Part shown: positions 7,149 through 59,255 of the stretch, piece after piece | Numbering within the stretch: position 1 is the stretch's first letter | Layout: every line of letters starts with the position of its first letter | Origin: Flavobacteriales bacterium | GTDB lineage: Bacteria; Bacteroidota; Bacteroidia; Palsa-965 | Assembly (NCBI GenBank): GCA_040377305.1 | Contig: JBEIPA010000032.1 | Coordinates: forward strand, 1 to 59,255 | DNA length: 59,255 nt | Direction: 5' to 3' | Translations under genes and position numbers: made by a program | The notes under the pieces: model-generated | Databases searched by the model: none | What the model saw: the letters and a program-made list of their open reading frames with translations, nothing else | What the model was told of the DNA's origin: nothing

Positions 7149-9137
7149 ATGAAAAAAATCATTACGTTATTTGCTACGGCAATGTTCCTGTCTGCTGGCA
7201 TCAATGCACAAAACAATGCTGGCCTTGGAACCACTACTCCAAATGCTTCTTCAATTCTTGAAATGCAGTCCACCACGCAAGGTGTGCTCGTTCCGCGAAT
7301 GACTGCGGTACAGCGTCTGGCTGTTCCCGTGAACGCAACTACTGAAGGTTTGTTGGTGTATGACCTGGATTCTCTCTGCTTCTTCTATTACAAAGTTTCA
7401 ACGGGGTGGACATCGCTTTGCAATTCAGGTGGTGGTACAGGACCAACTGGTCCTGCGGGTCCTCCAGGTGCGAACGGGTCTTCGGGAACAAACGGAATCT
7501 CGTGCTGGGATTTAAACTCTAACGGAGTGAACGATCCAGGAGAGGATATCAATAGCGATGGTAACTGGGATGGACTTGACTGTCAAGGTGCAGTTGGTGC
7601 GGCTGGTCCGGCCGGAGCGAACGGAACAAATGGAATTTCCTGCTGGGACTTGAACGGAAACGGTGTTCAGGATCCTGCTGAAGATATTAATACTGATGGT
7701 AACTGGAACGCTGCCGATTGTGCTGGTGCTACCGGAGCTACTGGTGCTGCTGGTGCACCGGGCGCGCCTGGTGTTGCTGGTCCTACCGGAGCTTCTGGAA
7801 TAAACGGAACGAATGGAGTAACAGGACCAACTGGTCCTATCGGTCCTACAGGTCCCACAGGGTTTGGTGTAGGCCCAACTGGTCCAACTGGTGCAAACGG
7901 AACTAACGGTGCAGCCGGTCCTGCGGGTCCTGCTGGTCCTGCCGGTGCTGCTGGTCCTACCGGCGCTGCTGGTGCTGCTGGCCCAATCGGTCCTGCTGGT
8001 CCTGCTGGTCCTGCTGGTCCTACCGGCGCTGCTGGTGCTGCTGGTCCTGTTGGTGCTGCTGGTCCTGCCGGTGCTGCTGGCGCAACGGGTCCTACCGGTC
8101 CAACGTGGACCATCACTTCAACGAATTACGATACAGATGGAAATTTGGTAATCAATACTTCCATACCATCTACAATCACTTCTACTAACCGCGCATGGAT
8201 ATTAGGTGGTAACGCTAATGCTGCGACTGAAAGTTTTGGTACAACCACTGCTCAGCATGTCGACCTCATATCCAACAATATTGTTCGTGGTCGTTTATCC
8301 AACGTTGGGGAGTTCTTTATCGGAACTACGGTAACTGCATTGGCTGGCGATTTGATGAACGGTGTAAGCAACGCAGCATTCCCTTGGGCTATCAATGGTT
8401 ATTCTAACCAAAATGGTAGCGGTGTTTATGGTTCTGTTACTGCGGGTGGTACTCAGTTCGGTGGAGTGCAAGGCGAGTATTTCGGTACTAACGCTATTGG
8501 TGCTGGTGTTCGCGGTATATGCGGTGCTGGAAATCAATTAGGAGTGAACGGACAAAACGTTGCAGTAACAACTGGTTGGTCAGGATTATTTCAGGGTGAT
8601 TTAGGATACACTGGATTCTTTGGTGTTGCCTCCGACGCTAAGCTCAAGAAAAACATTCAGACGATTGATAATCCAATGGGCATGATCATGCAAATGCGTG
8701 GCGTGACCTACGAGCACCGTCTGGATCAATATCCTGACCTTGGACTGAAGACAGGAACTAACTACGGATTCATTGCGCAGGAAATTGAAATTGTTGCACC
8801 CGATTTAGTGCGTACAAAGACTCTACCTCATATTAATTCAACCAATCGTGGTACTTCGAGTGCTCCAGGTGGTTCCAATGAAACAGTGAAAACCGTTAGC
8901 TACATTGAGGTTGTTCCGATTCTTTTGGAAGGAATCAAACAACAGCAGATGATGATCGATTCACTGAAAACTTCTGTGGAGGAACAACAAAAGAAAATTG
9001 AGCAACTTGAACAGCAAATTAGAATCGGTAATGGACAAGGGTACAATTCTCCTTCCCAGAGCCAACCTGACGCTGGCAATCCTGCACAAGCGGATAAGCC
9101 TGATCCACAACAAGTTGTAGTGGTTGACCCCAAATAG
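7149..9137 (+). CDS. Secreted collagen-like fibre protein with C-terminal Peptidase_S74-type intramolecular chaperone and coiled coil
   Basis: Signal peptide; '[18 protein letters not shown]' N-domain; Gly-X-Y runs interrupted by two CWDLNxNG...DINxDGxW...C motifs; '[12 protein letters not shown]...YGFIAQE...[18 protein letters not shown]'. Confidence 0.85.
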
Positions 9138-9187: not shown

Positions 9188-9237
9188 GATCGAAAATGGG
9201 TTATTTTTGCTTCCTTCTGAACTTAGCATATTCCCCA

Positions 9238-11829
9238 ATGAGAAAACTATTACCCCTACTACTCGTGCTTGTCAGTATGACTCGCATTAGTTACGCGCAG
9301 AACAACGCAGGTCTTGGAACCACAACACCGAACGCTTCTTCCATTCTTGAAATGCAGTCCACCACGCAAGGTGTTCTCGTTCCACGAATGACGGCTGTTC
9401 AGCGTTTGGCTGTTCCGGTAAACGCAACAACTGAAGGCTTGTTGGTGTATGACCTCGATTCACTTTGCTTCTTCTACTATAAAGTTTCAACGGGCTGGAC
9501 ATCACTTTGCAATGCAGGTGGTGGTACTGGTCCAACTGGTCCTGCGGGTCCTGCAGGTGCTAACGGTACAGCAGGCGCTAACGGAACGAATGGATATAAC
9601 TGCTGGGATCTTAACGGTGACTTGGTTCAGGATCCAGGCGAAGACATAAACTCAGATGGCGTATGGGACGCACTCGATTGTCAAGGCGCTGCGGGTCCTG
9701 CGGGGGCTGCGGGTGCAAACGGAACAAATGGAATTTCCTGCTGGGACTTGAACGGAAACGGTGTACAGGATCCTGCTGAAGATATTAATACCGATGGTAA
9801 CTGGAATGCATTGGATTGTGTTGGAGCTACTGGTGCAACCGGGGCCGCAGGTGCACCTGGAGCCGCGGGTCCTACAGGTACTCCTGGTACCAACGGAACA
9901 AACGGTGTTACCGGGCCAACTGGTCCTACGGGTCCCACGGGATTTGGTGTAGGTCCAACGGGTCCAACGGGTGCTGCCGGTCCAACTGGCGCTCCTGGTG
10001 CTAACGGGGCAACTGGTGCTGCTGGTCCTGCGGGTCCTACCGGAGCTCCTGGTGCTGCGGGCCCTACCGGTGCTGCGGGTCCTGCTGGTCCAACTGGTGC
10101 TGCTGGCGGCGTAGGTCCAACTGGTGCTGCAGGTGCTGCGGGTCCTACTGGTGCTGCGGGTCCTGTAGGTCCAACTGGTGCTGCAGGTGCTGTGGGTCCA
10201 ACTGGTGCTGCGGGTGCTGTAGGTCCAACTGGTGCTGCAGGTGCTGCGGGTCCTACTGGTGCTCCAGGCGCTGCGGGTCCTACTGGTGCTGCGGGTCCTG
10301 TAGGTCCAACCGGCGCTGCAGGTGCAGTAGGTCCGACTGGTCCAACATGGACATTGTCTTCAGTAACTTACAATACGAATGGTACTGTTACAGTTAACGG
10401 AACAGCGGGTTCAGGTGGTCCAATCACTTCAACAAACGCTGCATGGTTGACTACTGGTAATACAGGAACTAACGTTGCAACAAATTACATCGGAACAAAC
10501 GATGCAAACTCATTCGGAATCAGAACCGGTGGCGCAGCTTTGACAAACGAACGAATGCGCATTCTTAATACTGGTGAAGCGCTTTACAATAGTCAGGCAC
10601 CTGCTGCCGGAGATGTATTTGGTGTTTATGGTACTGGATATCCGGGTGCAACCAACGCATTAGGTAACTATGCAATTAATGGATATGTTGCTGGGGGTGG
10701 TGCTGCGTTGTATGGACAAAACCTTGGAACCGGTGCTGGTGTATATGGTGATGTTGCAAACGCAGTTGCTCTTGGTGTTCTTGGTCAAAACCTTGCAGCA
10801 AACGGAACTGGTGTTTATGGTGGAACTGTAGGTGGTTCAGGTAACGGTGTATGGGGTGACTACCTCGGTGTGGCGGCTAACGGAACTGCAGTTCGCGGAC
10901 AATCGGTTCAGCCAGGTTCTGCAGGTACTGCAGTTGCCGGTTTCAGTGTTGGTACCGGTAACGGTGTATATGGAAGTAACTCTGGAACGGGTCTCGGTGT
11001 ATTCGGCGTAAGCACCGGAACTAATGCAGGTGTATGGGGTCAATCTACGACAGGTGCAGATGGAGTTATTGGATTCGTAAATACAAACGCTGCATTCGGT
11101 GTGTGGGCAATTAACCAAAATGCTTCAGGTACTGGTTTGGCAGCATCGGGTAACAACCGCACTACGATTTATCTTCCTACTGGCTCCGGAGCCGCATTCA
11201 CAGGTGCTGAAGTTGGTGTATTTGGATTTGCCCGAAACCCGGCATCTGGTACTGCAGGATTAAATGGTGGTGGTTATTTCCGCGATTCAATTACCGCACT
11301 GAACAATACTTACGCTTATGTTGCTGCATATAGTGCTGGTACTGCTTACAAAGTAATCGGTCCTGGTGCGGTATCTACAATTGTACAGGATGCCAGTGGA
11401 CAAGATCGCGTGATGTATTGCCCGGAAGCTCCAGAAGTTCTTTTCGAAGATTACGGAACTGGTCAACTTGTAAATGGTCAAGCTTACATTAACCTCGATC
11501 CAATTTTCGCATTGAACGTTAAGATTGATGAACAGCATCCGATGAAAGTTTTCATCCAGCTCGAAGGAGAATGCAATGGTGTTTATGTTGATCTGAAGAC
11601 TGCACAAGGATTCCAGGTGAGTGAACTTAACGGAGGAACTTCCAATGCTAAGTTCAGCTGGCACGTTGTCTGTAACCGTGCTGACACACCAGCGTCGAAG
11701 TTTGAAGACAACCGTTTCCCGGTGTTCAACAACACAATGGATGCAGGAAACAGCAGAGAAAATATTCAATTAGTCGATCCAAAAGTTGTTCCGCAAGCAA
11801 CACCGGAGCTTCCTAAGAAAGACAACTAA
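9238..11829 (+). CDS. Secreted collagen-like fibre protein with Gly-rich GVxG repeat head (paralogue of 7149..9137)
   Basis: Likely start ATG 9238 (MRKLLPLLL signal peptide). Same N-domain as the upstream paralogue, longer GPT/GAA run, 'GxGVYG' repeats, terminal '[21 protein letters not shown]' domain. Confidence 0.82.
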
Positions 11830-19233: not shown

Positions 19234-19368
19234 AGTTGCAGCGGCAGTCGCAGCGGCAGTAAGTAGGCTGTAATCAGGCCGAATCAGCATTAATTTTTGT
19301 TAATCTCAGAATTTGACCTCGAACGTGTTGACTGTTTACTGACTGCAACTGCCGCTGCAACTGCGACT
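19234..19368. repeat. Inverted pair of GCAGYN hexamer tracts in the divergent TPR/ftsE intergenic region
   Basis: AGTTGCAGCGGCAGTCGCAGCGGCAGT (19234-19260) and complementary ACTGCAACTGCCGCTGCAACTGCGACT (to 19368). A 23-bp stretch (19336-19358) is identical to 27697-27719. Confidence 0.85.
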
Positions 19369-19389
19369 TTTTCTTTAGGTTTGTGCAAC

Positions 19390-20061
19390 ATGGAAAGCGA
19401 AACAATCATCTCTCTCGAAAAAGTATCGGTGTTTCAGAAACACAACATGGTGCTTAACAATGTGAACTTCACAGTATCGAAAGGTGAGTTTGTTTACCTG
19501 CTTGGTAAAACCGGTAGCGGTAAAAGTTCTTTAATGAAAACGCTTTACTGCGATGTTCCTTTCAAAGAAGGTCGCGCGACGATTGCCGGCTACGACCTTG
19601 CAAACATTGCGAAGAAGGATGTACCCTATCTCCGCCGGAAGACCGGAATTATTTTTCAGGATTTTCAGTTGCTGTATGATCGGAGCGTGAACGAGAATTT
19701 GTTCTTCGTGATGGAAGCGACTGGCTGGAAAGACAAAGAGAAGATGAAAGATCGCGCGCAGGAAGTTTTGGACAAAGTTGGTCTTGCGACGAAAGGACAT
19801 AAAATTCCGCATGAACTTTCTGGCGGCGAGCAGCAGCGTGTCTCCATTGCGCGTGCGTTGATTAATCATCCGGAAGTAATTCTTGCTGATGAGCCGACAG
19901 GAAATCTGGATCCGGAGACTTCGGAGGAGATTATGAAACTGCTTACTGATATTTCGAAGACGGGAACTGCGGTTGTGATTGCGACACATGATATGCTGGT
20001 GGTGAATAAATTTCCTGCACGTACTCTGCGATGCGAGAATGGTGAGGTGACACAACTTTAG
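19390..20061 (+). CDS. ftsE: FtsE-like ABC ATP-binding protein
   Basis: GKTGSGKS, IIFQDFQLL, LSGGEQQRV, LADEPTGNLD, ATHD. Probable start ATG 19390, just after TAGGTTTG. No ftsX adjacent. Confidence 0.75.
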   Translation: MESETIISLEKVSVFQKHNMVLNNVNFTVSKGEFVYLLGKTGSGKSSLMKTLYCDVPFKEGRATIAGYDLANIAKKDVPYLRRKTGIIFQDFQLLYDRSVNENLFFVMEATGWKDKEKMKDRAQEVLDKVGLATKGHKIPHELSGGEQQRVSIARALINHPEVILADEPTGNLDPETSEEIMKLLTDISKTGTAVVIATHDMLVVNKFPARTLRCENGEVTQL

Positions 20062-20157
20062 GTTGCCTGCGGCGCTTTACACGGCGACACAGCGAAACGG
20101 AGCCCTTTGTTTTCTAAGTGTTTCCCACGAGAAACGGCGGATCGCAAAAGCGATCAT

Positions 20158-20219
20158 TGGTGAATAAATTTCCGGCGAGAACACTTCGCTGTGAAAACGG
20201 AGAAGTGACTCAGCTTTAG
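20158..20219 (+). pseudogene. Orphan duplicate of the last 19 codons plus stop of the ftsE-like gene, differing only synonymously
   Basis: 20160-20219 translates to VNKFPARTLRCENGEVTQL*, identical to 20002-20061. A 16-bp identical start (TGGTGAATAAATTTCC) is followed by 14 differences, all synonymous. Confidence 0.92.
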
Positions 20220-20224
20220 GAAAT

Positions 20225-20418
20225 GGAACGCGGATTTTGATGTTCGTGGCGTGCTAGTCGTTTCCTTCGGATGATACTAGTATATACTTCGAGAGGGTAT
20301 TGGATTTTATGAGATAAACTCAAACGTATCTCATGAGATCAAAATTCGCGAATTCTGTATTTACCACACACATCCGAGAACAGTAATAGAAAACAAAGGG
20401 CTTCAAAAGCCGCGTTCC
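20225..20418. repeat. ~194-bp nested palindromic intergenic element, copy A
   Basis: GGAACGCGG...CCGCGTTCC ends; TCGGATG...CATCCGA middle; ATGAGATA-AACTCAAACG-TATCTCAT centre. Homologous to 49508-49700 and 59098-59255. Confidence 0.92.
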
Positions 20419-26452: not shown

Positions 26453-27628
26453 ATGGTTTCATTCGACAATACAGAAGTAGCTTTTTCGGGAAAGACACCC
26501 GGAGCGTTGAAACGGTCTTACTGGCTGTTCAAGGTAATTTCAAGTCCCACGATTGTAACGATTAGTAAAGCGCTCACCAATTTTGCGTTGGCCCTTCATA
26601 TTCCGATTCGTTGGGCGCTCAAGCCAACCATTTTCAAACAGTTTGTTGGCGGAGAAAATATCGAAGAGTGTTCGCGTACGATTGCGGAGCTTGGCAAGTA
26701 TAAAGTTGGAACCATTCTCGACTACTCTGTGGAAGGTAAAGAATCGGAAGCGGATTTTAATGCGGGTGCGAAGGAAATCATTGCAACAGTTGCACGTGCG
26801 AAGACTGATCCGAATATTCCATTTTGTGTTTTCAAAGTGACCGGACTTGGACGTTTTGAATTGCTCGAAAAAGTTTCTGCGCGCGAAAAGCTTACCACAG
26901 CAGAAGAACAAGAATGGAAAAGGGTTTGGCAACGAGTGGAAGATATTTGTGCTGCTGCTGAAGCCATTTCGAAACCCATTTTCGTTGATGCTGAAGACAG
27001 TTGGATTCAACAGGCGATTGACGATCTCGCTGATGAAATGATGGAGCGGCATAACAAGAAAATGCCGGTTGTGTACAACACGTATCAGTTGTACAGAAAA
27101 GATCGTCTGGAGTTTTTGAAAACATCATTCGCCAAAGCGCAGGCGGGAAATTATTTTCTCGGCGCTAAACTCGTTCGCGGTGCATACATGGAGAAAGAAA
27201 GAGCACGCGCGAAAGAGAAAGGTTATGCTGATCCGATTCATGACACCAAAGAAAACACTGATCGCGATTACGATTTAGCCGTTGCATTCTGCGTTGATCA
27301 CATTGATCGGATCGGACTTTGCGCCGGAACACACAATGAACTCAGTTCACAGAAGCTTGCAGAGGTTCTCGACGCGAAAAAGATTCCGCATAATCATCCG
27401 CACATCTATTTCTCACAACTTCTGGGAATGAGCGATCACATTTCCTTCAATCTGGCGCACAACGGTTATAATGTGGCGAAATATGTTCCGTACGGTCCCG
27501 TTCGCGATGTACTTCCGTATTTGATCCGCAGAGCGCAGGAAAATACTTCTGTGAAGGGGCAGACGGGAAGAGAACTTAGTTTGATTATTAAAGAGAAGGA
27601 AAGAAGAAAACAGTCGCAGCGGCAGTAG
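26453..27628 (+). CDS. Monofunctional proline dehydrogenase
   Basis: VDAED, YNTYQLY, KLVRGAY, GTHN, QLLGM, KYVPYG, YLIRRAQEN. Likely start ATG 26453, 8 nt after TAACTTTG. Confidence 0.92.
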   Translation: MVSFDNTEVAFSGKTPGALKRSYWLFKVISSPTIVTISKALTNFALALHIPIRWALKPTIFKQFVGGENIEECSRTIAELGKYKVGTILDYSVEGKESEADFNAGAKEIIATVARAKTDPNIPFCVFKVTGLGRFELLEKVSAREKLTTAEEQEWKRVWQRVEDICAAAEAISKPIFVDAEDSWIQQAIDDLADEMMERHNKKMPVVYNTYQLYRKDRLEFLKTSFAKAQAGNYFLGAKLVRGAYMEKERARAKEKGYADPIHDTKENTDRDYDLAVAFCVDHIDRIGLCAGTHNELSSQKLAEVLDAKKIPHNHPHIYFSQLLGMSDHISFNLAHNGYNVAKYVPYGPVRDVLPYLIRRAQENTSVKGQTGRELSLIIKEKERRKQSQRQ

Positions 27629-27723
27629 CAGTCAGTTTTCAGTATTAAAAAAGAAACTCCCGATATGAAGATCATATCGGGAGTTTTGTTTACTGCTTAC
27701 TGACTGCAACTGCCGCTGCTACT
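27611..27723. repeat. Inverted GCAGYN tracts bracketing a terminator
   Basis: CAGTCGCAGCGGCAGTAGCAGTCAGT (27611-27636, encodes QSQRQ*) and ACTGCTTACTGACTGCAACTGCCGCTGCTACT (27692-27723). Confidence 0.85.
27654..27690. terminator. Bidirectional terminator
   Basis: AAACTCCCGATATGA-loop-TCATATCGGGAGTTT between convergent genes. Confidence 0.88.
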
Positions 27724-27726
27724 TCT

Positions 27727-30700
27727 TTACTGCACTTCCAGCTTGCGCGAGAAGCTCTGTTCCCCTGCTGTAAAGTTGAGGAAGTAAATTCCGGTTGCGA
27801 GATTGTTTGCGTCGATAACCCAACGGTTAGTTCCCGGAGTGCAGTTCAATTGTAGTGTCTGCACCTGCTGTCCGAGCGAATTCACGATGGTGAGATTTGC
27901 TTCACGAACGTCGCCGCTGTTTGCAAATTCAATGGTGAAATCACCTTCTGTTGGATTTGGATACATGTTCATTGTTGCAGATGCACTCGCTGAACCGATT
28001 CCGCTACAAACATCAACCAGAACCGGGGAGTTTATACTTCCGGTACATCCTGCGGTATCCGTGTATGTGTACGTGATCGTATGCAAGCCAAGACCTGCAA
28101 CAGCCGGATCAAATACTCCACCGCTAACACCAGGACCGGAATAAACTCCGCCCGCAGGTGAACCGCCAGTCAATGTAAATGCACTCGCGATTGAACATGT
28201 TGTATCGTACGGTGTTGTGTTCAATGAAATGTTTGACGCACCAACTACAACCGTTACAGGTGTACGTGGTGAGTGACAGCCATCGAGTGTCAATGTCCAA
28301 TTGTACAAGTAGTAGTAGAATGCCGGTCCAGCGGAAGAGCCTGTGATGCTCAAAACACCTGGAGAGGTGTACGGATAACTAGCACTTGCGTTGTTACGAT
28401 AGAGATTCATTTGTGTACCTCCCAAACGATATGAGCCTGGAGTCAATGGAATATTCAGCGTTACGGTTTGCTGACCCGTTGCAGGAACATTGACAGTGTA
28501 ATTGTTGATGAGGTTACCCGCATTGTCCCACAATGTGAATGTTTTGTTTCCGGAAGAACCTGCATACACCACTCCAGTTGTTAGCGTACAAGCCTGGTAA
28601 ACCGTGAACTCTTCGTATTGAATAGAAGTGTTGTTGTGTTGACCACCTGTTCCGAAAGTATTGTTAACCGGACCAACTGTTACGGGCGCTTGTGCTGTGA
28701 GATTTTCTACGTAGTAAGTTGTTGTTGTACTGATCGCCGGTGTTGTGTACGATGTTCCGGTACCGAGCGCTGTTCCTCCAATTGCCTGCGAGTACCAGCT
28801 CAACTGACCATTACCCGTTGCGTTCAGGGTCACACTTCCTGGATTACAAATCTGCGTTCCTGTTGCAGTTGGTGCAGCTGGTGGATTGATTGTGATATAG
28901 GAGTTTTGAGTAGTCTGGTCTGTGCCGCATGCAGAGGAAACAGAAACAGAAACATTGTAAGTTCCCGGTGCCGTGTAAGTATGAGAAGGACTGTATGCTG
29001 TATCTGTGGTCATATCCCCGAAATCCCAGAATGCGGTTGTTGCATTCGTACTTGTATTGGTGAATGTAATTGTAGTTGGAACTGAACAAGACGTAAGGAT
29101 GTTGCCTGAGAAACTCGCTGCTACAGTTGCGCTGAACGCCGGTCCAACTCCACATGCGTACCACGCATTTGCAACATCAATCTGTTCAGGAGAACATGCT
29201 CCGAATAAATCCTGTGCTGCCTGAATTGCGCCGACACGTGCATCCATGTATTCTGATGTGCTCACGAGATAAACGGTGTTGTTACGGAAAGCCACCGCGC
29301 CTGCATCGGCCCAGCCAAAACCGGTCACATTGAAAGCATCGCCGAGATCGTTTGTTCCGCTACCACCTTGTGAGCAGAGATAATACCAGTAATTCTGAAC
29401 ACCGCTGTTTGTGTGAACACCGCCGTTGTCGCCTGTACCAGTGTACCAGTTTGTGCCGGTGTAACAATCAGGATCGCCAAACTGATTTGGATTTGACATA
29501 CTACGAAGCGCGCTGTTTGAATTTACAGTAACGTCTTCACCGATCAGGAAGTCAGCATTGGCTGGCGTGAGATGCCATTCGAGCATGGTTCCGAAAATAT
29601 CGGAGAATGATTCGTTCAGCGCACCTGATTCATACGAGTAATCAAGGTTAGATGAGTTTTCTGTAACTCCATGTGTAAATTCATGTCCGCACACGTCGAG
29701 TGCAACCAGAGGATTGAATCCACCAGGCTGTTGTGAGCCGTCGCCATACGACATAGATTGTCCATCCCAATACGCATTGTCCAATCCACTGTCGTAATGC
29801 ACATAGGATAGCATCAGCATTCCATTGTTGTCGAGACCATCGCGTCCAAAAACATTCATGTAATAGTCATACGTTCCTTCTGCGCCCCAATGTGCATCAC
29901 GCGCAGCATCATCGCCCCCGGCAGTTGAAGTCCAGCTCGTAGTTGCGTTTGTAAAATCTACCGCGTTGCCCTGATTGGTTGTATTCTGACAATTGAGCGT
30001 GCGAATACCTTGTCCGCGTCCTGATTCACGAAGACGATAAGATCCGGCGTTGCTATCGCAAGTGAAACTTTGTGTTCCTGAATACATCGTTGTTCCGGTT
30101 GCGGGAGTATCAATGTTGTGAATTCTGTTTTTGGTGTGAACGATTGCACCAGTTTGTGCATCAACGAAAATCCAGTTACGGGTTACAGGTTCTGCAGCAT
30201 AGATGTCGAGCTTCCATGCGAGCACGTAGTCTTTCTTCATCATGTCTCCATCGCGACACACGATTACCAGTTCTCCCTGCGGATAATAAGTTGCATTCGG
30301 ATTACCCGTAATTTCTTTCAGAGAATTCTCAAAAGCAGGATCCTGCCAACGATACTTTGAAGCACCAACATACGCAACTGCTTTCGCAACTGCAGCATCT
30401 TTCGTCAATGCCGGATTTGTGTTCACTGTAATTCCATCGAACCACATTCCGTTTGTTGCGTACACGTATCCGTCTTTCGAGTGAATAATGTACTCGCCAT
30501 TCTCTACACGGATATCGCTGTACATCTGATTCACGCGTTCGTGTGTATAACCGAGGAGATCTTTCTCCACATGCTTCGTACGCATGCCATCAGCAAACTG
30601 CATGTGCAACGCCGGACGAAGTACATCCTGAATTTCAGTCGGAACAATTTTGCTGTCTTCGCGGAACCAGATAAACGATGGTACGCGAGATTGGCGATTA

Positions 30701-30983: not shown

Positions 30984-31358
30984 CTAAATTCCCTCTAGCT
31001 TCAACAATGTCGCAGTACTGTCAGCAACGCATACTTTCACGTACGCCTGAAGAGTTTTCGCAGCGTGATCGAATTCAATCAGGTACTCATGACATGGCTC
31101 TTTCTGCGCCTGGCTGCGACCGAAATCGACTTTTCCGTTTGCGAGTCTTGTCCGCAATGTGTCCGGGGTAAGATTTACCGATTTCATTTTCACCAGGAGT
31201 GTTGAATCAATCTCGATTGTTTTCATCAGATAAATTTGCTCGGTTACTCGTCCACCCGGAGAGCACGCATCGAACGTTCTTCCACGAAACATGATGAGAC
31301 AGATGATCAGGCCGAGGCCGACTCCGATTAAATACAATTTGATTCTACGCCAGGTCAT
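30984..31358 (-). CDS. Small membrane-anchored hypothetical protein (DUF4258-like)
   Basis: 'RRIKLYLIGVGLGLII' TM followed by 'GKVDFGRS...PCHEY', resembling the small gene commonly downstream of Bacteroidota ald. Confidence 0.65.
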   Translation of the reverse strand: MTWRRIKLYLIGVGLGLIICLIMFRGRTFDACSPGGRVTEQIYLMKTIEIDSTLLVKMKSVNLTPDTLRTRLANGKVDFGRSQAQKEPCHEYLIEFDHAAKTLQAYVKVCVADSTATLLKLEGI

Positions 31359-31361
31359 AAT

Positions 31362-31397
31362 GATGTGCCGATGTGCCTAAATGCCAATGTGCCGATG
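31362..31397. repeat. 8-mer tandem tract (GATGTGCC)
   Basis: GATGTGCC GATGTGCC TAAATGCC AATGTGCC GATG; same unit at 33646-33680. Confidence 0.8.
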
Positions 31398-31464
31398 CAA
31401 TTAGCTGATATTTGATTTTTGATTCGCCGATGCTCGCTTGCCATTACTTCCCCGGGGGAGGACA

Positions 31465-33280: not shown

Positions 33281-33654
33281 TTCGGGAGATCTTTCTCGCG
33301 AATATACATGCGGGCATTGTAGTAGCCGAGCGGTAGACGGTAATATTTCCAGCCCTTCGCCGGAATAAGTCGTGAACTGTCGGAGCAAAGTGAATCCGTA
33401 TAAAAGACAAACCGTTGACTTACTTCCGGTTTCGACTCCTTGAATTGTGTTTTCGCATAACCAATTCCGGCCTCTTCGTAAACCGTAACCGCCGAATCGG
33501 CTTCAACACGCATGATCGAAGCAGGGCCACGTTTGTTTTTGTCGACGCAATACACTGGTGTTCCTGTATCGTTGAAGACCGCGTAGGTAAGGTGGTATGC
33601 CGGATCGCATGCGGTTAATGTCGCCATCAGTAAGAACACTGAAACGATGTGCAA
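33277..33654 (-). CDS. Hypothetical lipoprotein between porX and tsaE
   Basis: Hydrophobic 'IVSVFLLMATLTA-C' lipobox. Start uncertain (TTG 33654 proposed). Stop is coupled to the tsaE start. Confidence 0.6.
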   Translation of the reverse strand: MHIVSVFLLMATLTACDPAYHLTYAVFNDTGTPVYCVDKNKRGPASIMRVEADSAVTVYEEAGIGYAKTQFKESKPEVSQRFVFYTDSLCSDSSRLIPAKGWKYYRLPLGYYNARMYIREKDLPK

Positions 33655-33680
33655 ATGTGCCGATGTGCCGATATGCCGAT
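33646..33680. repeat. 8-mer tandem tract (GATGTGCC)
   Basis: GATGTGCA AATGTGCC GATGTGCC GATATGCC GAT abutting the porX stop. Confidence 0.8.
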
Positions 33681-35233
33681 TAACGGGGAACAAGTGATAT
33701 ATAAGGAATAATCATTTCCTCCAGAGAAACGCCACCATGCTGGAAAGTATTGCGATAGTATTGCACGTAGTGGTTATAATTATTCGGATAAGCGAAAAAT
33801 TTATCTTCTGTTGCAAAGATGTATGCAGAGCTTACGTTGTTCTTCGGCAGGAATGCATCCGATGGAGTACGAACCTCGAACACATCTTTCTTCACGTAAT
33901 CAAGATTCTTTCCTTGCTTGTAGCGGAGATTCGTGTTCACGTTACGGTCACCAACCACTTTCGTAGGCTCAGTCACTTTGATTGTTCCGTGATCGGTTGC
34001 GATAACCATTCTGCATTTCTTATCCGCAATGATCTTGATGATATCGTGTAGCGCCGAGTGTTCGAACCACGAAAGTGTAATCGAACGATAAGCCGCATCG
34101 TCGTCTGCCAACTCGCGGATTACTTCCATTTCAGTTCTCGCGTGCGAAAGCATATCTACGAAATTGTAAACGATCACATTCAGCTTGTTCTGCATGAGAT
34201 TGTTCACACTTTCCGAAAGCTTTTTGCCGGCTGCGTAATTCGTAATCTTGTGGTAAGAGAACTTTACATCTTTTCCAATACGTTTCAATTGTGCAGCAAG
34301 GAAATCTTCCTCGTGCATATTTTTTCCGCCTTCATCGTCATCGTTCTTCCAGAGTTTCGGAAAGTTCTTTTCGATTTCAGATGGAAGTAATCCTGCGAAG
34401 AGTGCGTTACGCGCATATTGTGTGGCTGTAGGAAGAATGCTGCAGAACAACTCTTCTTCTTCAACCCGGAAATACTGATTGATCACAGGCTGCAACATTT
34501 TCCATTGATCGTAACGGAGGTTATCAATCAACAGGAAGAAAACCGGACCATCCTTATCCAACATAGGCGCCACTTTTGTTTTAATCAACGTGTGCGACTG
34601 CATTGGAGGTGCCTTATCTTTTCCGTTGAGCCAATTGATATAATTCTGTCCGATGAATTTCGCGAAAGCAACATTCGCTTCACGTTTCTGCATCGTGAGA
34701 ATTTCGTGCATGCTCGCGTCGTTCGATTTCTCGAGCTCGAGTTCCCAATACACAAGTTTCTTGTACACTTCTACCCACTCCGGCCAGCTCAATCGGTCAG
34801 ACAAAGTCATTCCGATGCTGCGGAACTCCTGCATGTAGCCGCTGGTGGTTTTCTCACTCACCAGGCGCTTGTTCTCGAGAATCTTCTTGAGCGAAAGCAA
34901 TATCTGATTCGGGTTTACCGGTTTGATGAGGTAATCGGCAATTTTCGAACCGATTGCGTCTTCCATCAAATTCTCTTCCTCACTTTTCGTGATCATCACA
35001 ATCGGAATTTCCGAACGCTTTGCTTTGATACGGGTCAATGTTTCGATTCCGGAAATACCAGGCATGTTCTCATCGAGGAAAACGATGTCAACCGGCTCTC
35101 TGGAAATGATGTCTACAGCTTCGTTGCCACTGGTAGACGTAATTACCTCGTAACCTTTTTCCTCGAGAAACATGATATGTGGCTTGAGCAAATCGATTTC
35201 ATCATCGGCCCAGAGAATGCGGATTTTGTCCAT
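33680..35233 (-). CDS. porX: PorX response regulator (receiver + PglZ alkaline-phosphatase-like domain)
   Basis: ILWADDE...FLDENMPG receiver; IDNLRYDQW, LPTATQYARN, TDHG, FQHGGVSLEEM. Confidence 0.93.
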   Translation of the reverse strand: MDKIRILWADDEIDLLKPHIMFLEEKGYEVITSTSGNEAVDIISREPVDIVFLDENMPGISGIETLTRIKAKRSEIPIVMITKSEEENLMEDAIGSKIADYLIKPVNPNQILLSLKKILENKRLVSEKTTSGYMQEFRSIGMTLSDRLSWPEWVEVYKKLVYWELELEKSNDASMHEILTMQKREANVAFAKFIGQNYINWLNGKDKAPPMQSHTLIKTKVAPMLDKDGPVFFLLIDNLRYDQWKMLQPVINQYFRVEEEELFCSILPTATQYARNALFAGLLPSEIEKNFPKLWKNDDDEGGKNMHEEDFLAAQLKRIGKDVKFSYHKITNYAAGKKLSESVNNLMQNKLNVIVYNFVDMLSHARTEMEVIRELADDDAAYRSITLSWFEHSALHDIIKIIADKKCRMVIATDHGTIKVTEPTKVVGDRNVNTNLRYKQGKNLDYVKKDVFEVRTPSDAFLPKNNVSSAYIFATEDKFFAYPNNYNHYVQYYRNTFQHGGVSLEEMIIPYISLVPR

Positions 35234-46467: not shown

Positions 46468-47031
46468 ATGGCAGATACAGGCGACGTAAGCATCGGAACA
46501 TTCCTCAAGTACAACGGAGAACTTGTTCAGGTTGTTGAATGGCAACACCGCACACCAGGAAACCTGCGTGCATTTTATCAAGGCAAAATGAGAAACCTGC
46601 TCAACAACAAAATTGTTGAGAACCGTTTCCGTTCAGGAGAAGGTGTGGAAATTGTCTGGGTGGAATATAAAAACCTGCAATTCATCTATCCGGAAGACAC
46701 GAACATCGTGCTGATGGATAAAGACACGTTCGAGCAAACATACATTCCTAAAGTGATGGTTTCAAACGGGCTCGAATTCCTGAAAGAAGGAATGGACGTA
46801 AAAGTTTGGTTCGAAAGCGAACAGCCTATTTCTGCGGAAGCTCCTGCAACGGTTGAGTTGCTTATCACTTATACTGAACCAGGACTCAAAGGAGATACTG
46901 CAACAAACACTTTGAAACCAGCGAAAGTGGAAACAGGTGCGGAAGTTCGCGTGCCTCTTTTCATTAGCGAAGGCGACAAGATTAAGATTGATACAAAGAC
47001 CGGTGCTTATATGGAGCGCGTGAAGCAATAA
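46468..47031 (+). CDS. efp: Elongation factor P (PGN tip variant)
   Basis: HRTPGNLRAF loop, TEPGLKGDTA, KPAKVETG, VPLFI, Y-ER. Confidence 0.95.
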   Translation: MADTGDVSIGTFLKYNGELVQVVEWQHRTPGNLRAFYQGKMRNLLNNKIVENRFRSGEGVEIVWVEYKNLQFIYPEDTNIVLMDKDTFEQTYIPKVMVSNGLEFLKEGMDVKVWFESEQPISAEAPATVELLITYTEPGLKGDTATNTLKPAKVETGAEVRVPLFISEGDKIKIDTKTGAYMERVKQ

Positions 47032-47153
47032 TTCCGAGATTTCGGATTCCGTATTTCGTGATTCCAAGAACATATATTATTTAAACAAAGATGCCGTTGT
47101 AAACTCAACGGCATCTTTGTTTTCGGAATTTCGAAATTCGCAATCTCGGAATT
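47030..47153. repeat. Inverted ~7-mer tracts bracketing the efp terminator
   Basis: AATTCCGAGATTTCGGATTCCGTATTTCGTGATTCC versus GGAATTTCGAAATTCGCAATCTCGGAATT; outermost 11 bp are a perfect inverted pair. Confidence 0.82.
47083..47123 (+). terminator. efp terminator
   Basis: AAACAAAGATGCCGTTG-loop-CAACGGCATCTTTGTTT. Confidence 0.88.
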
Positions 47154-47260
47154 CTACAAGTTCGATGGATTCCTGGAGTTTAAAATAACTGCTCGCCTTC
47201 CCACCCATAAGGCTTCTCCCTGAGCACCGATAATTCGTACTTTTACGCAAACATTTTACC

Positions 47261-48278: not shown

Positions 48279-49508
48279 ATGGCTAAGTCACACGAAGCGA
48301 GACAACGTGCACCAAGGTTGAAGGATTTCAAGCTGAATGCTTTGCTTGACATTACGAAAGCCATCAACAACAACCAACCGGTTTCTGAGCTTCTTACTGT
48401 ATTCGAAGAAATAGTTCGGGTAAAACTCAACATCGGCAAACTGGTTTTGTTCAGTCACGATGGTGTGAGCTGGCAACGCTTGTTAAGTTTCGGTGATGAT
48501 GCACATTTCGCAGCCATTGTTCCCGAACGCGACTTCGCCGGAATCTCTGAAATCACAACGATCGATTTTTCTCAGAAGTCCTTGCACCGTTCTTTCGAAA
48601 TCATCATTCCTGTTTTTCATAAATCAAATGCACTCGCGTATGTTCTCATCGGCGATCTGAATGAAGATGAAAACGGAATGAGTGCTGCGATTAAACATTT
48701 GCCTTTTGTACAAACGCTCACGAACATTATGATCGTAGCGATTGAAAATAAAAAGCTCTTCCGTGAAAATCTGAAACGCGCTGCGATGCACCGTGAGCTG
48801 GAGCTTGCATGGGAAGTGCAACGTATGTTGTTCCCGGAGAAGCTTCCGCACAATGAATATCTCGACATGGATGCGTTGTACCTGCCTCACCAATCTGTTG
48901 GCGGAGATTACTACGACTTCATTCAGCTCAACGAAAACGAAGTTGCATTTTGCGTAGCCGATGTTTCCGGAAAGGGTGTTCCTGCTGCGTTGCTGATGTC
49001 GAACTTTCAGGCGAGCTTGCAGATATTACTACGGCACATCAGTGATCTTTCTGAACTTGTGCATGAACTGAATGCGAAAGTTATACGCAACAGCAAAGGC
49101 GAAAAATTCATCACGCTCTTCATTGCGAAATACAATACGGTTACACGTGTACTCAATTACATCAACGCAGGGCATAATCCACCTTTGATTGTGGACCACG
49201 ATGGAACGAATCTTCTCACCGTTGGTTGCACCGGATTGGGTATGTTCGACCAGCTTGAACGTGTGCGTGAAGGAATTGTGAACGTCCGCGCTGGTGCACT
49301 TCTCATTTGCTATACAGACGGATTGGTTGAACAATCGAACGATCAGGAAGAGGAATTCGGCATGGACCGTTTGCAACAACTCGTTCGTAGTTCGCGTGAA
49401 AAAACTCCAACCGAAATCAACCACATGCTTTTGCAGGAACTCAATAAGCACAAGGGAGATCGGGCGTATGTGGATGACATTGCCTTGATCACAGCCCGGA
49501 TTAAATAG
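48279..49508 (+). CDS. SpoIIE/RsbU-family PP2C phosphatase with N-terminal GAF-like domain
   Basis: VGGDYYD, ADVSGKGVPAALLM, INAGHNPP, YTDGLVE, DDIAL. Confidence 0.9.
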   Translation: MAKSHEARQRAPRLKDFKLNALLDITKAINNNQPVSELLTVFEEIVRVKLNIGKLVLFSHDGVSWQRLLSFGDDAHFAAIVPERDFAGISEITTIDFSQKSLHRSFEIIIPVFHKSNALAYVLIGDLNEDENGMSAAIKHLPFVQTLTNIMIVAIENKKLFRENLKRAAMHRELELAWEVQRMLFPEKLPHNEYLDMDALYLPHQSVGGDYYDFIQLNENEVAFCVADVSGKGVPAALLMSNFQASLQILLRHISDLSELVHELNAKVIRNSKGEKFITLFIAKYNTVTRVLNYINAGHNPPLIVDHDGTNLLTVGCTGLGMFDQLERVREGIVNVRAGALLICYTDGLVEQSNDQEEEFGMDRLQQLVRSSREKTPTEINHMLLQELNKHKGDRAYVDDIALITARIK

Positions 49509-49700
49509 GAAAGCGGATTTCTACGTCCAATACCTACTCGTCTTTCCGTCGGATCACTTGGGTAAATTGAAAATTTCGGTATTCGATCTTATGAGATACA
49601 TTTAAGTTTATCTCATTCAATCCAATTCATACTTTGAAAATTCAATTGGATCATCCGAAGGAAACGTTAAGCAAACAACGGATATAAAAATCCGTGTTCC
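49508..49700. repeat. ~193-bp nested palindromic intergenic element, copy B (inverted relative to A)
   Basis: GGAAAGCGGAT...ATCCGTGTTCC; TCGGATCA...TCATCCGA; ATGAGATA-CATTTAAGTT-TATCTCAT. Its reverse complement aligns without gaps to copy A across the left arm and centre. Confidence 0.92.
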
Positions 49701-59097: not shown

Positions 59098-59255
59098 GGA
59101 ACGCGGATCTTGATGTGTTTTAGGTGTTAGTCCTTCCGTCGGATGATTTCGGTGAATAGAACGTGTGTGGAATTTGATCTTATGAGATACGTTTGAGTTT
59201 ATCTCATAAAATCCAATTACGAATTTTCAAGTTCTGTAGAGTCATCCGAGCGAGC
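59098..59255. repeat. Nested palindromic intergenic element, copy C (truncated by window end; same orientation as B)
   Basis: GGAACGCGGAT; TCGGATGA...TCATCCGA; ATGAGATA-CGTTTGAGTT-TATCTCAT, the exact reverse complement of the copy A centre. Confidence 0.92.

Follow-up and report, generated by a model that had tools for sequence, protein, structure and literature searches.

What kind of genetic element lies between ftsE and a glycosyltransferase gene in the 59,255-nt contig analyzed here (the window, meaning this whole stretch), where three nested inverted blocks surround a short core, and what maintains it? The initial annotation, made from the sequence alone, described three copies of this element (A, B, and C) and offered as readings a protein-binding or recombination site, a REPIN-like unit moved in trans, or a long-hairpin RNA. 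In the window sequence, the blocks of copy A stand where they were annotated, the left outer one at 20225-20235 and the left inner one at 20309-20316; the right-hand middle and outer blocks carry one mismatch apiece, and a conserved A-rich flank reaches about 5 nt beyond the element on both sides (Table 1). Copies A and B are complete, whereas copy C, also annotated as full, is cut by the contig end and lacks the right outer block.

Table 1. Positions of the element copies, their parts, and adjacent repeats in the window.
Feature	Position	Strand	Remarks
Copy A, gene-less element (left arm, 10-nt core, right arm)	20225..20418	+	From the sequence and the genome profile
Left arm of copy A	20225..20316	+	Outer block 20225-20238, middle 20267-20274, inner 20302-20316
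Core of copy A	20317..20326	+	Slot of the GxxExxY gene in the full form; tandem arms and inserts break there
Right arm of copy A, inverted	20327..20418	-	Inner block 20327-20334, middle 20370-20377, outer 20408-20418
Copy B	49508..49700	-	Core 49599-49608; between two convergent stop codons
Copy C	59098..59255	-	Core 59190-59199; 4 nt past a stop codon; truncated by the contig end
Arm of second repeat family	20063..20157	+	Matches the flank of another GxxExxY gene, G000 C11:48941-49378
Duplicate of the ftsE 3′ end (original 20002-20061)	20160..20219	+	Supplies the stop codon beside copy A

Recurrence and geometry of the element

A profile built from the three copies gave 87 non-overlapping matches at E<=1e-3, 53 of them full length, in the 5.18-Mb genome that contains the window (G000), a recurrence far beyond chance. 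Geometry was measured on 68 paired copies, 53 from G000 and 15 from a second genome of the genus, G015. The arms are 89-91 nt long in 119 of 130 measurable cases (six further arms were not measurable), the outer and middle blocks are 40-42 nt apart in 124 of 129 arms, and the middle block lies 48-50 nt from the core, again in 124 of 129. The fixed spacing originally annotated from three copies therefore held as more copies were aligned, with each block distance confined to a 3-nt range in nearly every arm. The 10-nt core was also correctly described for most copies (54/68), but the core has 13 nt in 12 copies and 11 nt in two.

Sequence is much less constrained than length. Arms of different copies share a mean identity of 65%, falling to about 40% at variable columns, and the best cross-copy arm identity is 0.93, with no near-identical dispersed pair indicating recent movement. 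These values agree with the earlier view of constrained geometry rather than recent copying. Most arm matches (106/147) are paired across a core, forming extragenic inverted doublets at a conserved distance. The element has a size within 70-300 bp, terminal inverted repeats, and no coding capacity, and its arm consensus contains neither a 20-40 bp palindromic REP unit nor a GTAG or CGTC tag. Conservation along the arm gave no clear peak at the helical period of 10.5. Each copy combines one arm of each of two loosely defined flavours (PC1 correlation -0.78). Variants along the arm lose their linkage over about 10 nt, yet some positions 20-42 nt out stay tied to core direction, and a simple crossover model cannot fit both.

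The GxxExxY gene and the core

One locus outside the window, G000 C60:144401-145017, has a 132-aa ORF between two arms where the core would be; two more tandem arms stand upstream. The ORF belongs to the GxxExxY family, with 131 bits to TIGR04256 (cut-off 35) and a match to PF13366. A co-occurring GxxExxY gene was among the partners that the initial annotation had proposed to look for, and its enclosure by arms elsewhere in the genome supports the idea of a REPIN-like unit served by a trans-acting protein from outside the window. GxxExxY is the only gene found enclosed by two arms. G015 carries a 79%-identical gene within the same arms at the orthologous site; these two are the only gene-bearing loci seen, and they have one origin. 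In five further genomes of the genus, the neighboring radical-SAM gene has no GxxExxY gene directly after it; G008 has a short empty hairpin at that place.

The association extends beyond this locus. All eight GxxExxY genes of G000 have inverted flanks of their own, one of only 18 nt. Among relatives, 65 loci were fetched and 60 had enough flank; the same terminal motif stands inverted on both sides in 44 of the 60, against 0 of 60 control windows, and is usually followed by 9-nt repeats. In the GxxExxY tree, of which row L082, translated on the wrong strand, is to be disregarded, the two long-arm proteins sit in a supported six-member group (99/96) nested among relatives. Taken with the enclosed gene, these flanks make it very probable that the element is tied to GxxExxY.

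The C60 protein is predicted with a pLDDT of 92.6. Structure comparison by Foldseek returned Cas4 SSO0001 and lambda-type exonucleases at a modest best E of 1e-3, and VIA-align returned restriction-endonuclease-like folds, also modestly (best Z 8.0, rmsd 3.5, 97 aligned residues); a search of the PDB by sequence profile gave no match. These fold matches modestly place the protein among the PD-(D/E)XK nucleases without naming an activity. An active site of this class is expected to comprise acidic residues, a lysine, and a QxxxY motif. In the predicted protein the site looks intact, as E33, D72, E82, K84, Q96, and Y100 (numbered from the first Met) show no or almost no variation across 30 sequences. 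The available part of one classification lists PF13366 as of unknown function (PMC3424549).

An arm lies 53 nt from the GxxExxY match. If an ordinary transposase, of the Y1/HUH or DDE type, moved the element as a MITE or REPIN and the gene were only a passenger fallen into its core, the 10 Y1 transposase genes of G000, the other DNA that has also landed in the core, and the finding of only one gene-bearing copy per genome would be accounted for. The Y1 genes, however, lie at least 2.2 kb from the nearest arm, three of them on arm-free contigs, and a target duplication was not in excess for k = 2-8 at nine boundary offsets in 52 copies. GxxExxY relatives across phyla are, moreover, flanked by the same terminus, and a transposase with a passenger gene is an improbable explanation.

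The core itself carries traces of the gene. In gene-bearing copies, each arm is followed inward by bases that match one half of the empty core. The 13-nt core type looks like the 13 nt that come first on the 5′ side of the gene, and the G015 gene-bearing copy retains a whole 10-nt core on the 3′ side. Given this match between core halves and inner ends, core direction would, most simply, record the direction of a lost gene, as judged from two loci. By eye, all tandem arms (17 in G000 and three in G015) continue for 5-9 nt into the core before giving way to outside sequence; as serial copies in about nine arrays, they do not represent 20 independent events. A 10-nt insert and an insert of about 105 nt both sit in the core, as does the GxxExxY gene. 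The core is the one place where the element breaks.

Single loci show further arrangements of arms. At G000 C29:2534-2758 the core is made of two same-type halves, both of the gene's 5′ side, followed by a third arm, a structure that fits a recombination joint in the core. A single arm directly precedes a small ORF at C42:940-1300, and tandem arms at C38:1-321 are interleaved with another short palindromic repeat.

Inverted arms around a directional core had also suggested a site-specific recombination site, either a tyrosine-recombinase core or an attC-like site, at which the core would be inverted or capture cassettes. The inner blocks are inverted 12-bp sequences around an asymmetric spacer. 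Arm flavour is only loosely tied to core direction (59:41), and the core is reversed at two of the five sites shared whole between G000 and G015 (two further copies keep the same direction and one has a different core type). At the two reversed sites, however, the arm flavours are flipped too, so that the whole element has turned or been re-inserted. Tyrosine-recombinase cores have a 6-8 nt spacer, which the 10- or 13-nt spacer here exceeds. None of the seven tyrosine-recombinase genes lies within 2.7 kb of any arm, neither a cognate recombinase or integron integrase nor a cassette array was found near the arms, and the copies are dispersed beside housekeeping genes. With core direction explained instead by the joined inner ends of the gene-bearing form, a recombination site of either type is quite unlikely.

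Arm complementarity and turnover of sites

As RNA, copy A folds at -63.5 kcal/mol with a z-score of -5.2 (200 shuffles), as would be expected of a structured non-coding RNA forming one long hairpin. Such a z-score can mislead, since the arms of one copy are in fact less complementary to each other than to the arms of other copies. At variable positions in the 53 copies of G000, pairing is 0.40 within a copy versus 0.47 between copies, with 0 of 10,000 permutations as low; in G015 it is 0.41 versus 0.47, with 14 of 10,000 as low. The deficit persists after a rough control for flavour (0.395 versus 0.439; 37 copies). Folded as DNA, real copies are weaker than shuffled arm pairs (-34.0 versus -38.9 kcal/mol, p 6e-5). 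In an RNAalifold consensus of 20 copies, the pairs fall almost only in the invariant blocks; the covariation term is +0.44, and just two of 26 pairs show any double change. Rfam gave no match over the whole window at the gathering threshold. The RNA reading is thus largely refuted and retains very little probability. The negative covariation of the arms can be measured and is an unusual sign that selection acts against palindrome formation. Inverted repeats that are longer, more similar, and more closely spaced are less stable, according to the available part of one study (PMC7999016), and this instability provides a simple selective reason for arms that avoid complementarity.

The long-arm family is restricted to G000 and G015 among 27 genomes of the genus (a tally that includes G012, on which no claim rests). 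No copy was found in 400 other genomes of the class with an exact pattern that diverged relatives would escape, and a metagenome scan with the inner pattern gave no match. A looser pattern gave 12 metagenome matches, which score at most 13 bits against the arm profile, have no element structure, and were taken as chance.

Within G000, a stop codon lies within 20 nt of 43 of the 53 copies, against about 6 under a rough null (maximum 14 in 1000), and convergent junctions account for 18 of 52 copies versus 190 of 1159 long intergenic regions, by ORF calls made in this analysis. Copy A had been annotated, like the others, as starting 0-5 nt from a stop codon, but the stop 5 nt before this element comes from a duplicated piece of the 3′ end of ftsE; the genuine ftsE stop lies 163 nt off, and that of the glycosyltransferase gene is 16 nt from the other end. 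This preference for gene ends, together with blocks that are intact despite the age of the copies, might be expected of a formerly selfish repeat now kept by the host as a binding or regulatory element (a terminator aid, an mRNA-end stabilizer, or a nucleoid-protein site). However, relatives have nothing or an unrelated hairpin at the same junctions, only the two genomes among the 27 carry the family, and there is no sense-strand G-U bias (166 G-U versus 189 A-C). Retention by the host is accordingly an unlikely account of the element.

Occupancy was compared at 17 G015 loci. One is the gene-bearing copy, five are shared whole and two in part with G000, and seven have both flanks orthologous with the element absent in G000; another has a single orthologous flank and the last no flank match. 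Six of the seven element-free G000 sites hold another hairpin repeat, as judged by eye, one of which is a short 9-nt form with the same terminus. The junction of copy A is short and element-free in G035 and G032, has other genes in G038 and G008, and is unassembled in G015. That of copy B is empty in G032, is occupied by three other hairpin families in G015, G038, and G035, and has another neighbor gene in G008. Copies therefore come and go between species and are often swapped for other hairpin families. At a coding-DNA identity of about 80%, G000 and G015 yielded no clean pre-insertion site, and contig comparison at 85% gave only joints explained by other element copies. At the G015 site matching copy C (L158, after position 2238), there is an apparent decayed single arm below the profile threshold.

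Known repeat systems, a proposed mechanism, and neighboring repeats

In the available text on REPIN/RAYT systems, inverted doublets at a conserved distance are extragenic, number in the tens, and form tandem arrays that include flanking DNA, and each repeat family has one enzyme gene, situated among its repeats and proposed to act in trans (PMC3116915). The present element resembles these systems in its doublets, extragenic position, tens of copies, tandem arrays, and a single enzyme gene proposed to act in trans. In contrast to RAYT, an HUH tyrosine transposase, the partner here is a protein of predicted PD-(D/E)XK fold, and its gene lies inside the center of the doublet. The arms, at about 95 bp, are not built from short self-palindromic REPs, which are described as 20-40 bp palindromes usually tagged with GTAG or CGTC (PMC3733652, in part), and they avoid complementarity, whereas REPINs form a long hairpin. 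TIRtrons come closer in architecture: according to the same partial source, a small enzyme gene (TIRYT) lies directly between long terminal inverted repeats that also occur dispersed as dimers and clusters (PMC3733652). An arm-flanked small enzyme gene with the same repeats dispersed is likewise found here. TIRYT, as described there, retains the IS200/IS605-group HUH motif and catalytic tyrosine, while the enzyme here is TIGR04256/PF13366; since it is not an HUH transposase, the element falls outside both REPIN/RAYT and TIRtrons. On our best reading, it would work like REPIN/RAYT, be built like a TIRtron, and be run by a nuclease instead of a transposase.

Bacterial MITEs such as RUP, NEMIS/Correia, and ERIC, as far as the available text describes them (PMC3733652), are similar in their 70-300 bp size, inverted ends, lack of an ORF, location beside genes, and gene-bearing full form. 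The element differs in that conserved blocks extend over the entire arm, that its full form carries no transposase, and that near-identical dispersed copies are missing, and it fails MITE membership because it has no target duplication. With the short-armed GxxExxY elements it shares the gene family, the terminal motif, the pairing of gene-bearing and empty forms, and the same junction sites. The short forms repeat a 9-nt unit over 30-40 bp; the present arm is a 90-nt non-repetitive sequence with three blocks at fixed distances, a directional core, and two flavours.

A further comparison is offered by the Rpn family, which belongs to PDDEXK_2 and for which we know of no flanking repeat family. 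The PDDEXK_2 row of one classification, available in part, falls in the PD-(D/E)XK class (PMC3424549), and the available text on Rpn (YhgA-like, PF04754) describes putative mobilizing proteins tied to RecA-independent horizontal transfer (PMC5350276). Another partial source reads Rpn proteins as toxic and anti-phage (PMC10400941). Rpn is thus alike in its putative mobilizing role and PD-(D/E)XK class, but is a different family from GxxExxY.

The evidence favors the element as the gene-less form of a small GxxExxY-bearing element, copied and maintained in trans by that predicted nuclease, to which we assign a probability of roughly 0.6. It is likely a selfish repeat spread by this protein, not a folded RNA or a recombinase switch. 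Under the proposed mechanism, the GxxExxY protein would bind the conserved blocks in trans on duplex DNA, several subunits reading the three GAT-containing blocks of each arm, which would fix the spacing and leave the spacer sequence free. The protein would then cut inside the core, and host recombination would draw on another copy, or on the allele of a relative, to repair the cut. Such repair may account for the loss of the gene, the tandem arrays of arms, the flips of whole elements, and the swap of one repeat family for another, and copies whose ~95-bp arms become too similar would be lost as unstable palindromes. We hold this cut-and-repair route at slightly below even odds. A broader proposal is more tentative and would at present be doubted: that GxxExxY proteins are the mobilizing enzymes of widespread tiny elements without a transposase, acting through a nuclease cut and homing-like repair at gene junctions, with the three fixed-distance blocks of each arm aiming the cut at the core and the spacers driven away from self-pairing so that a 194-bp palindrome survives.

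As a working class, GxxExxY-associated inverted-repeat elements are represented here by a TIGR04256/PF13366 gene directly between inverted arms and by dispersed gene-less copies of polymorphic occupancy. They apparently constitute an undescribed nuclease-associated class; a literature search, with most subscription papers and supplements outside its scope, turned up no paper that connects GxxExxY with repeats. The novelty lies in the type of arm, which is long, of fixed geometry, and anti-complementary, and this long-armed form makes the class directly testable. The family gives PF13366 a defined candidate substrate, in which 68 natural variants separate the bases and distances that matter and the breakpoints predict the place of the cut. 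If the reading is true, a restriction-fold nuclease, and not only an HUH transposase, can run REPIN-like repeat systems.

A second GxxExxY repeat family adjoins copy A. Its arm in the window and the locus at G000 C11:48941-49670 have dozens of matches in G015, and the downstream flank of the C11 gene has a short block in common with the long-arm element, which hints at exchange between the families. The ftsE 3′ duplicate that flanks this arm encodes an identical 19-residue peptide with 14 nucleotide differences, all silent, a pattern that fits repair from relatives. A genome-wide screen found 12 duplicated gene ends that conserve the peptide, most of them beside repeat arms and some matching at just 28-33 of 45 nt, which suggests that alleles of relatives are captured where junctions bear repeats.

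Other intergenic hairpins in the window, built of 6-8-nt tandem units, lie at 19297-19370, 27600-27735, 31355-31400, 33640-33685, and 47025-47160, and some enclose a terminator-like stem. The window also encodes T9SS-type proteins, which probably indicate a Bacteroidota host, and, at 7149-9137 and 9196-11829, two collagen-repeat paralogs in tandem, the first of which has a Peptidase_S74 chaperone domain. Elsewhere in G000, a motif with AAACGTTT at its center occurs upstream of the Y1 genes at C1:655, C38:2472, C43:12128, and C4:46567 and of the GxxExxY genes on C10 and C11; this AAACGTTT-centered motif is possibly a common promoter or regulator site.
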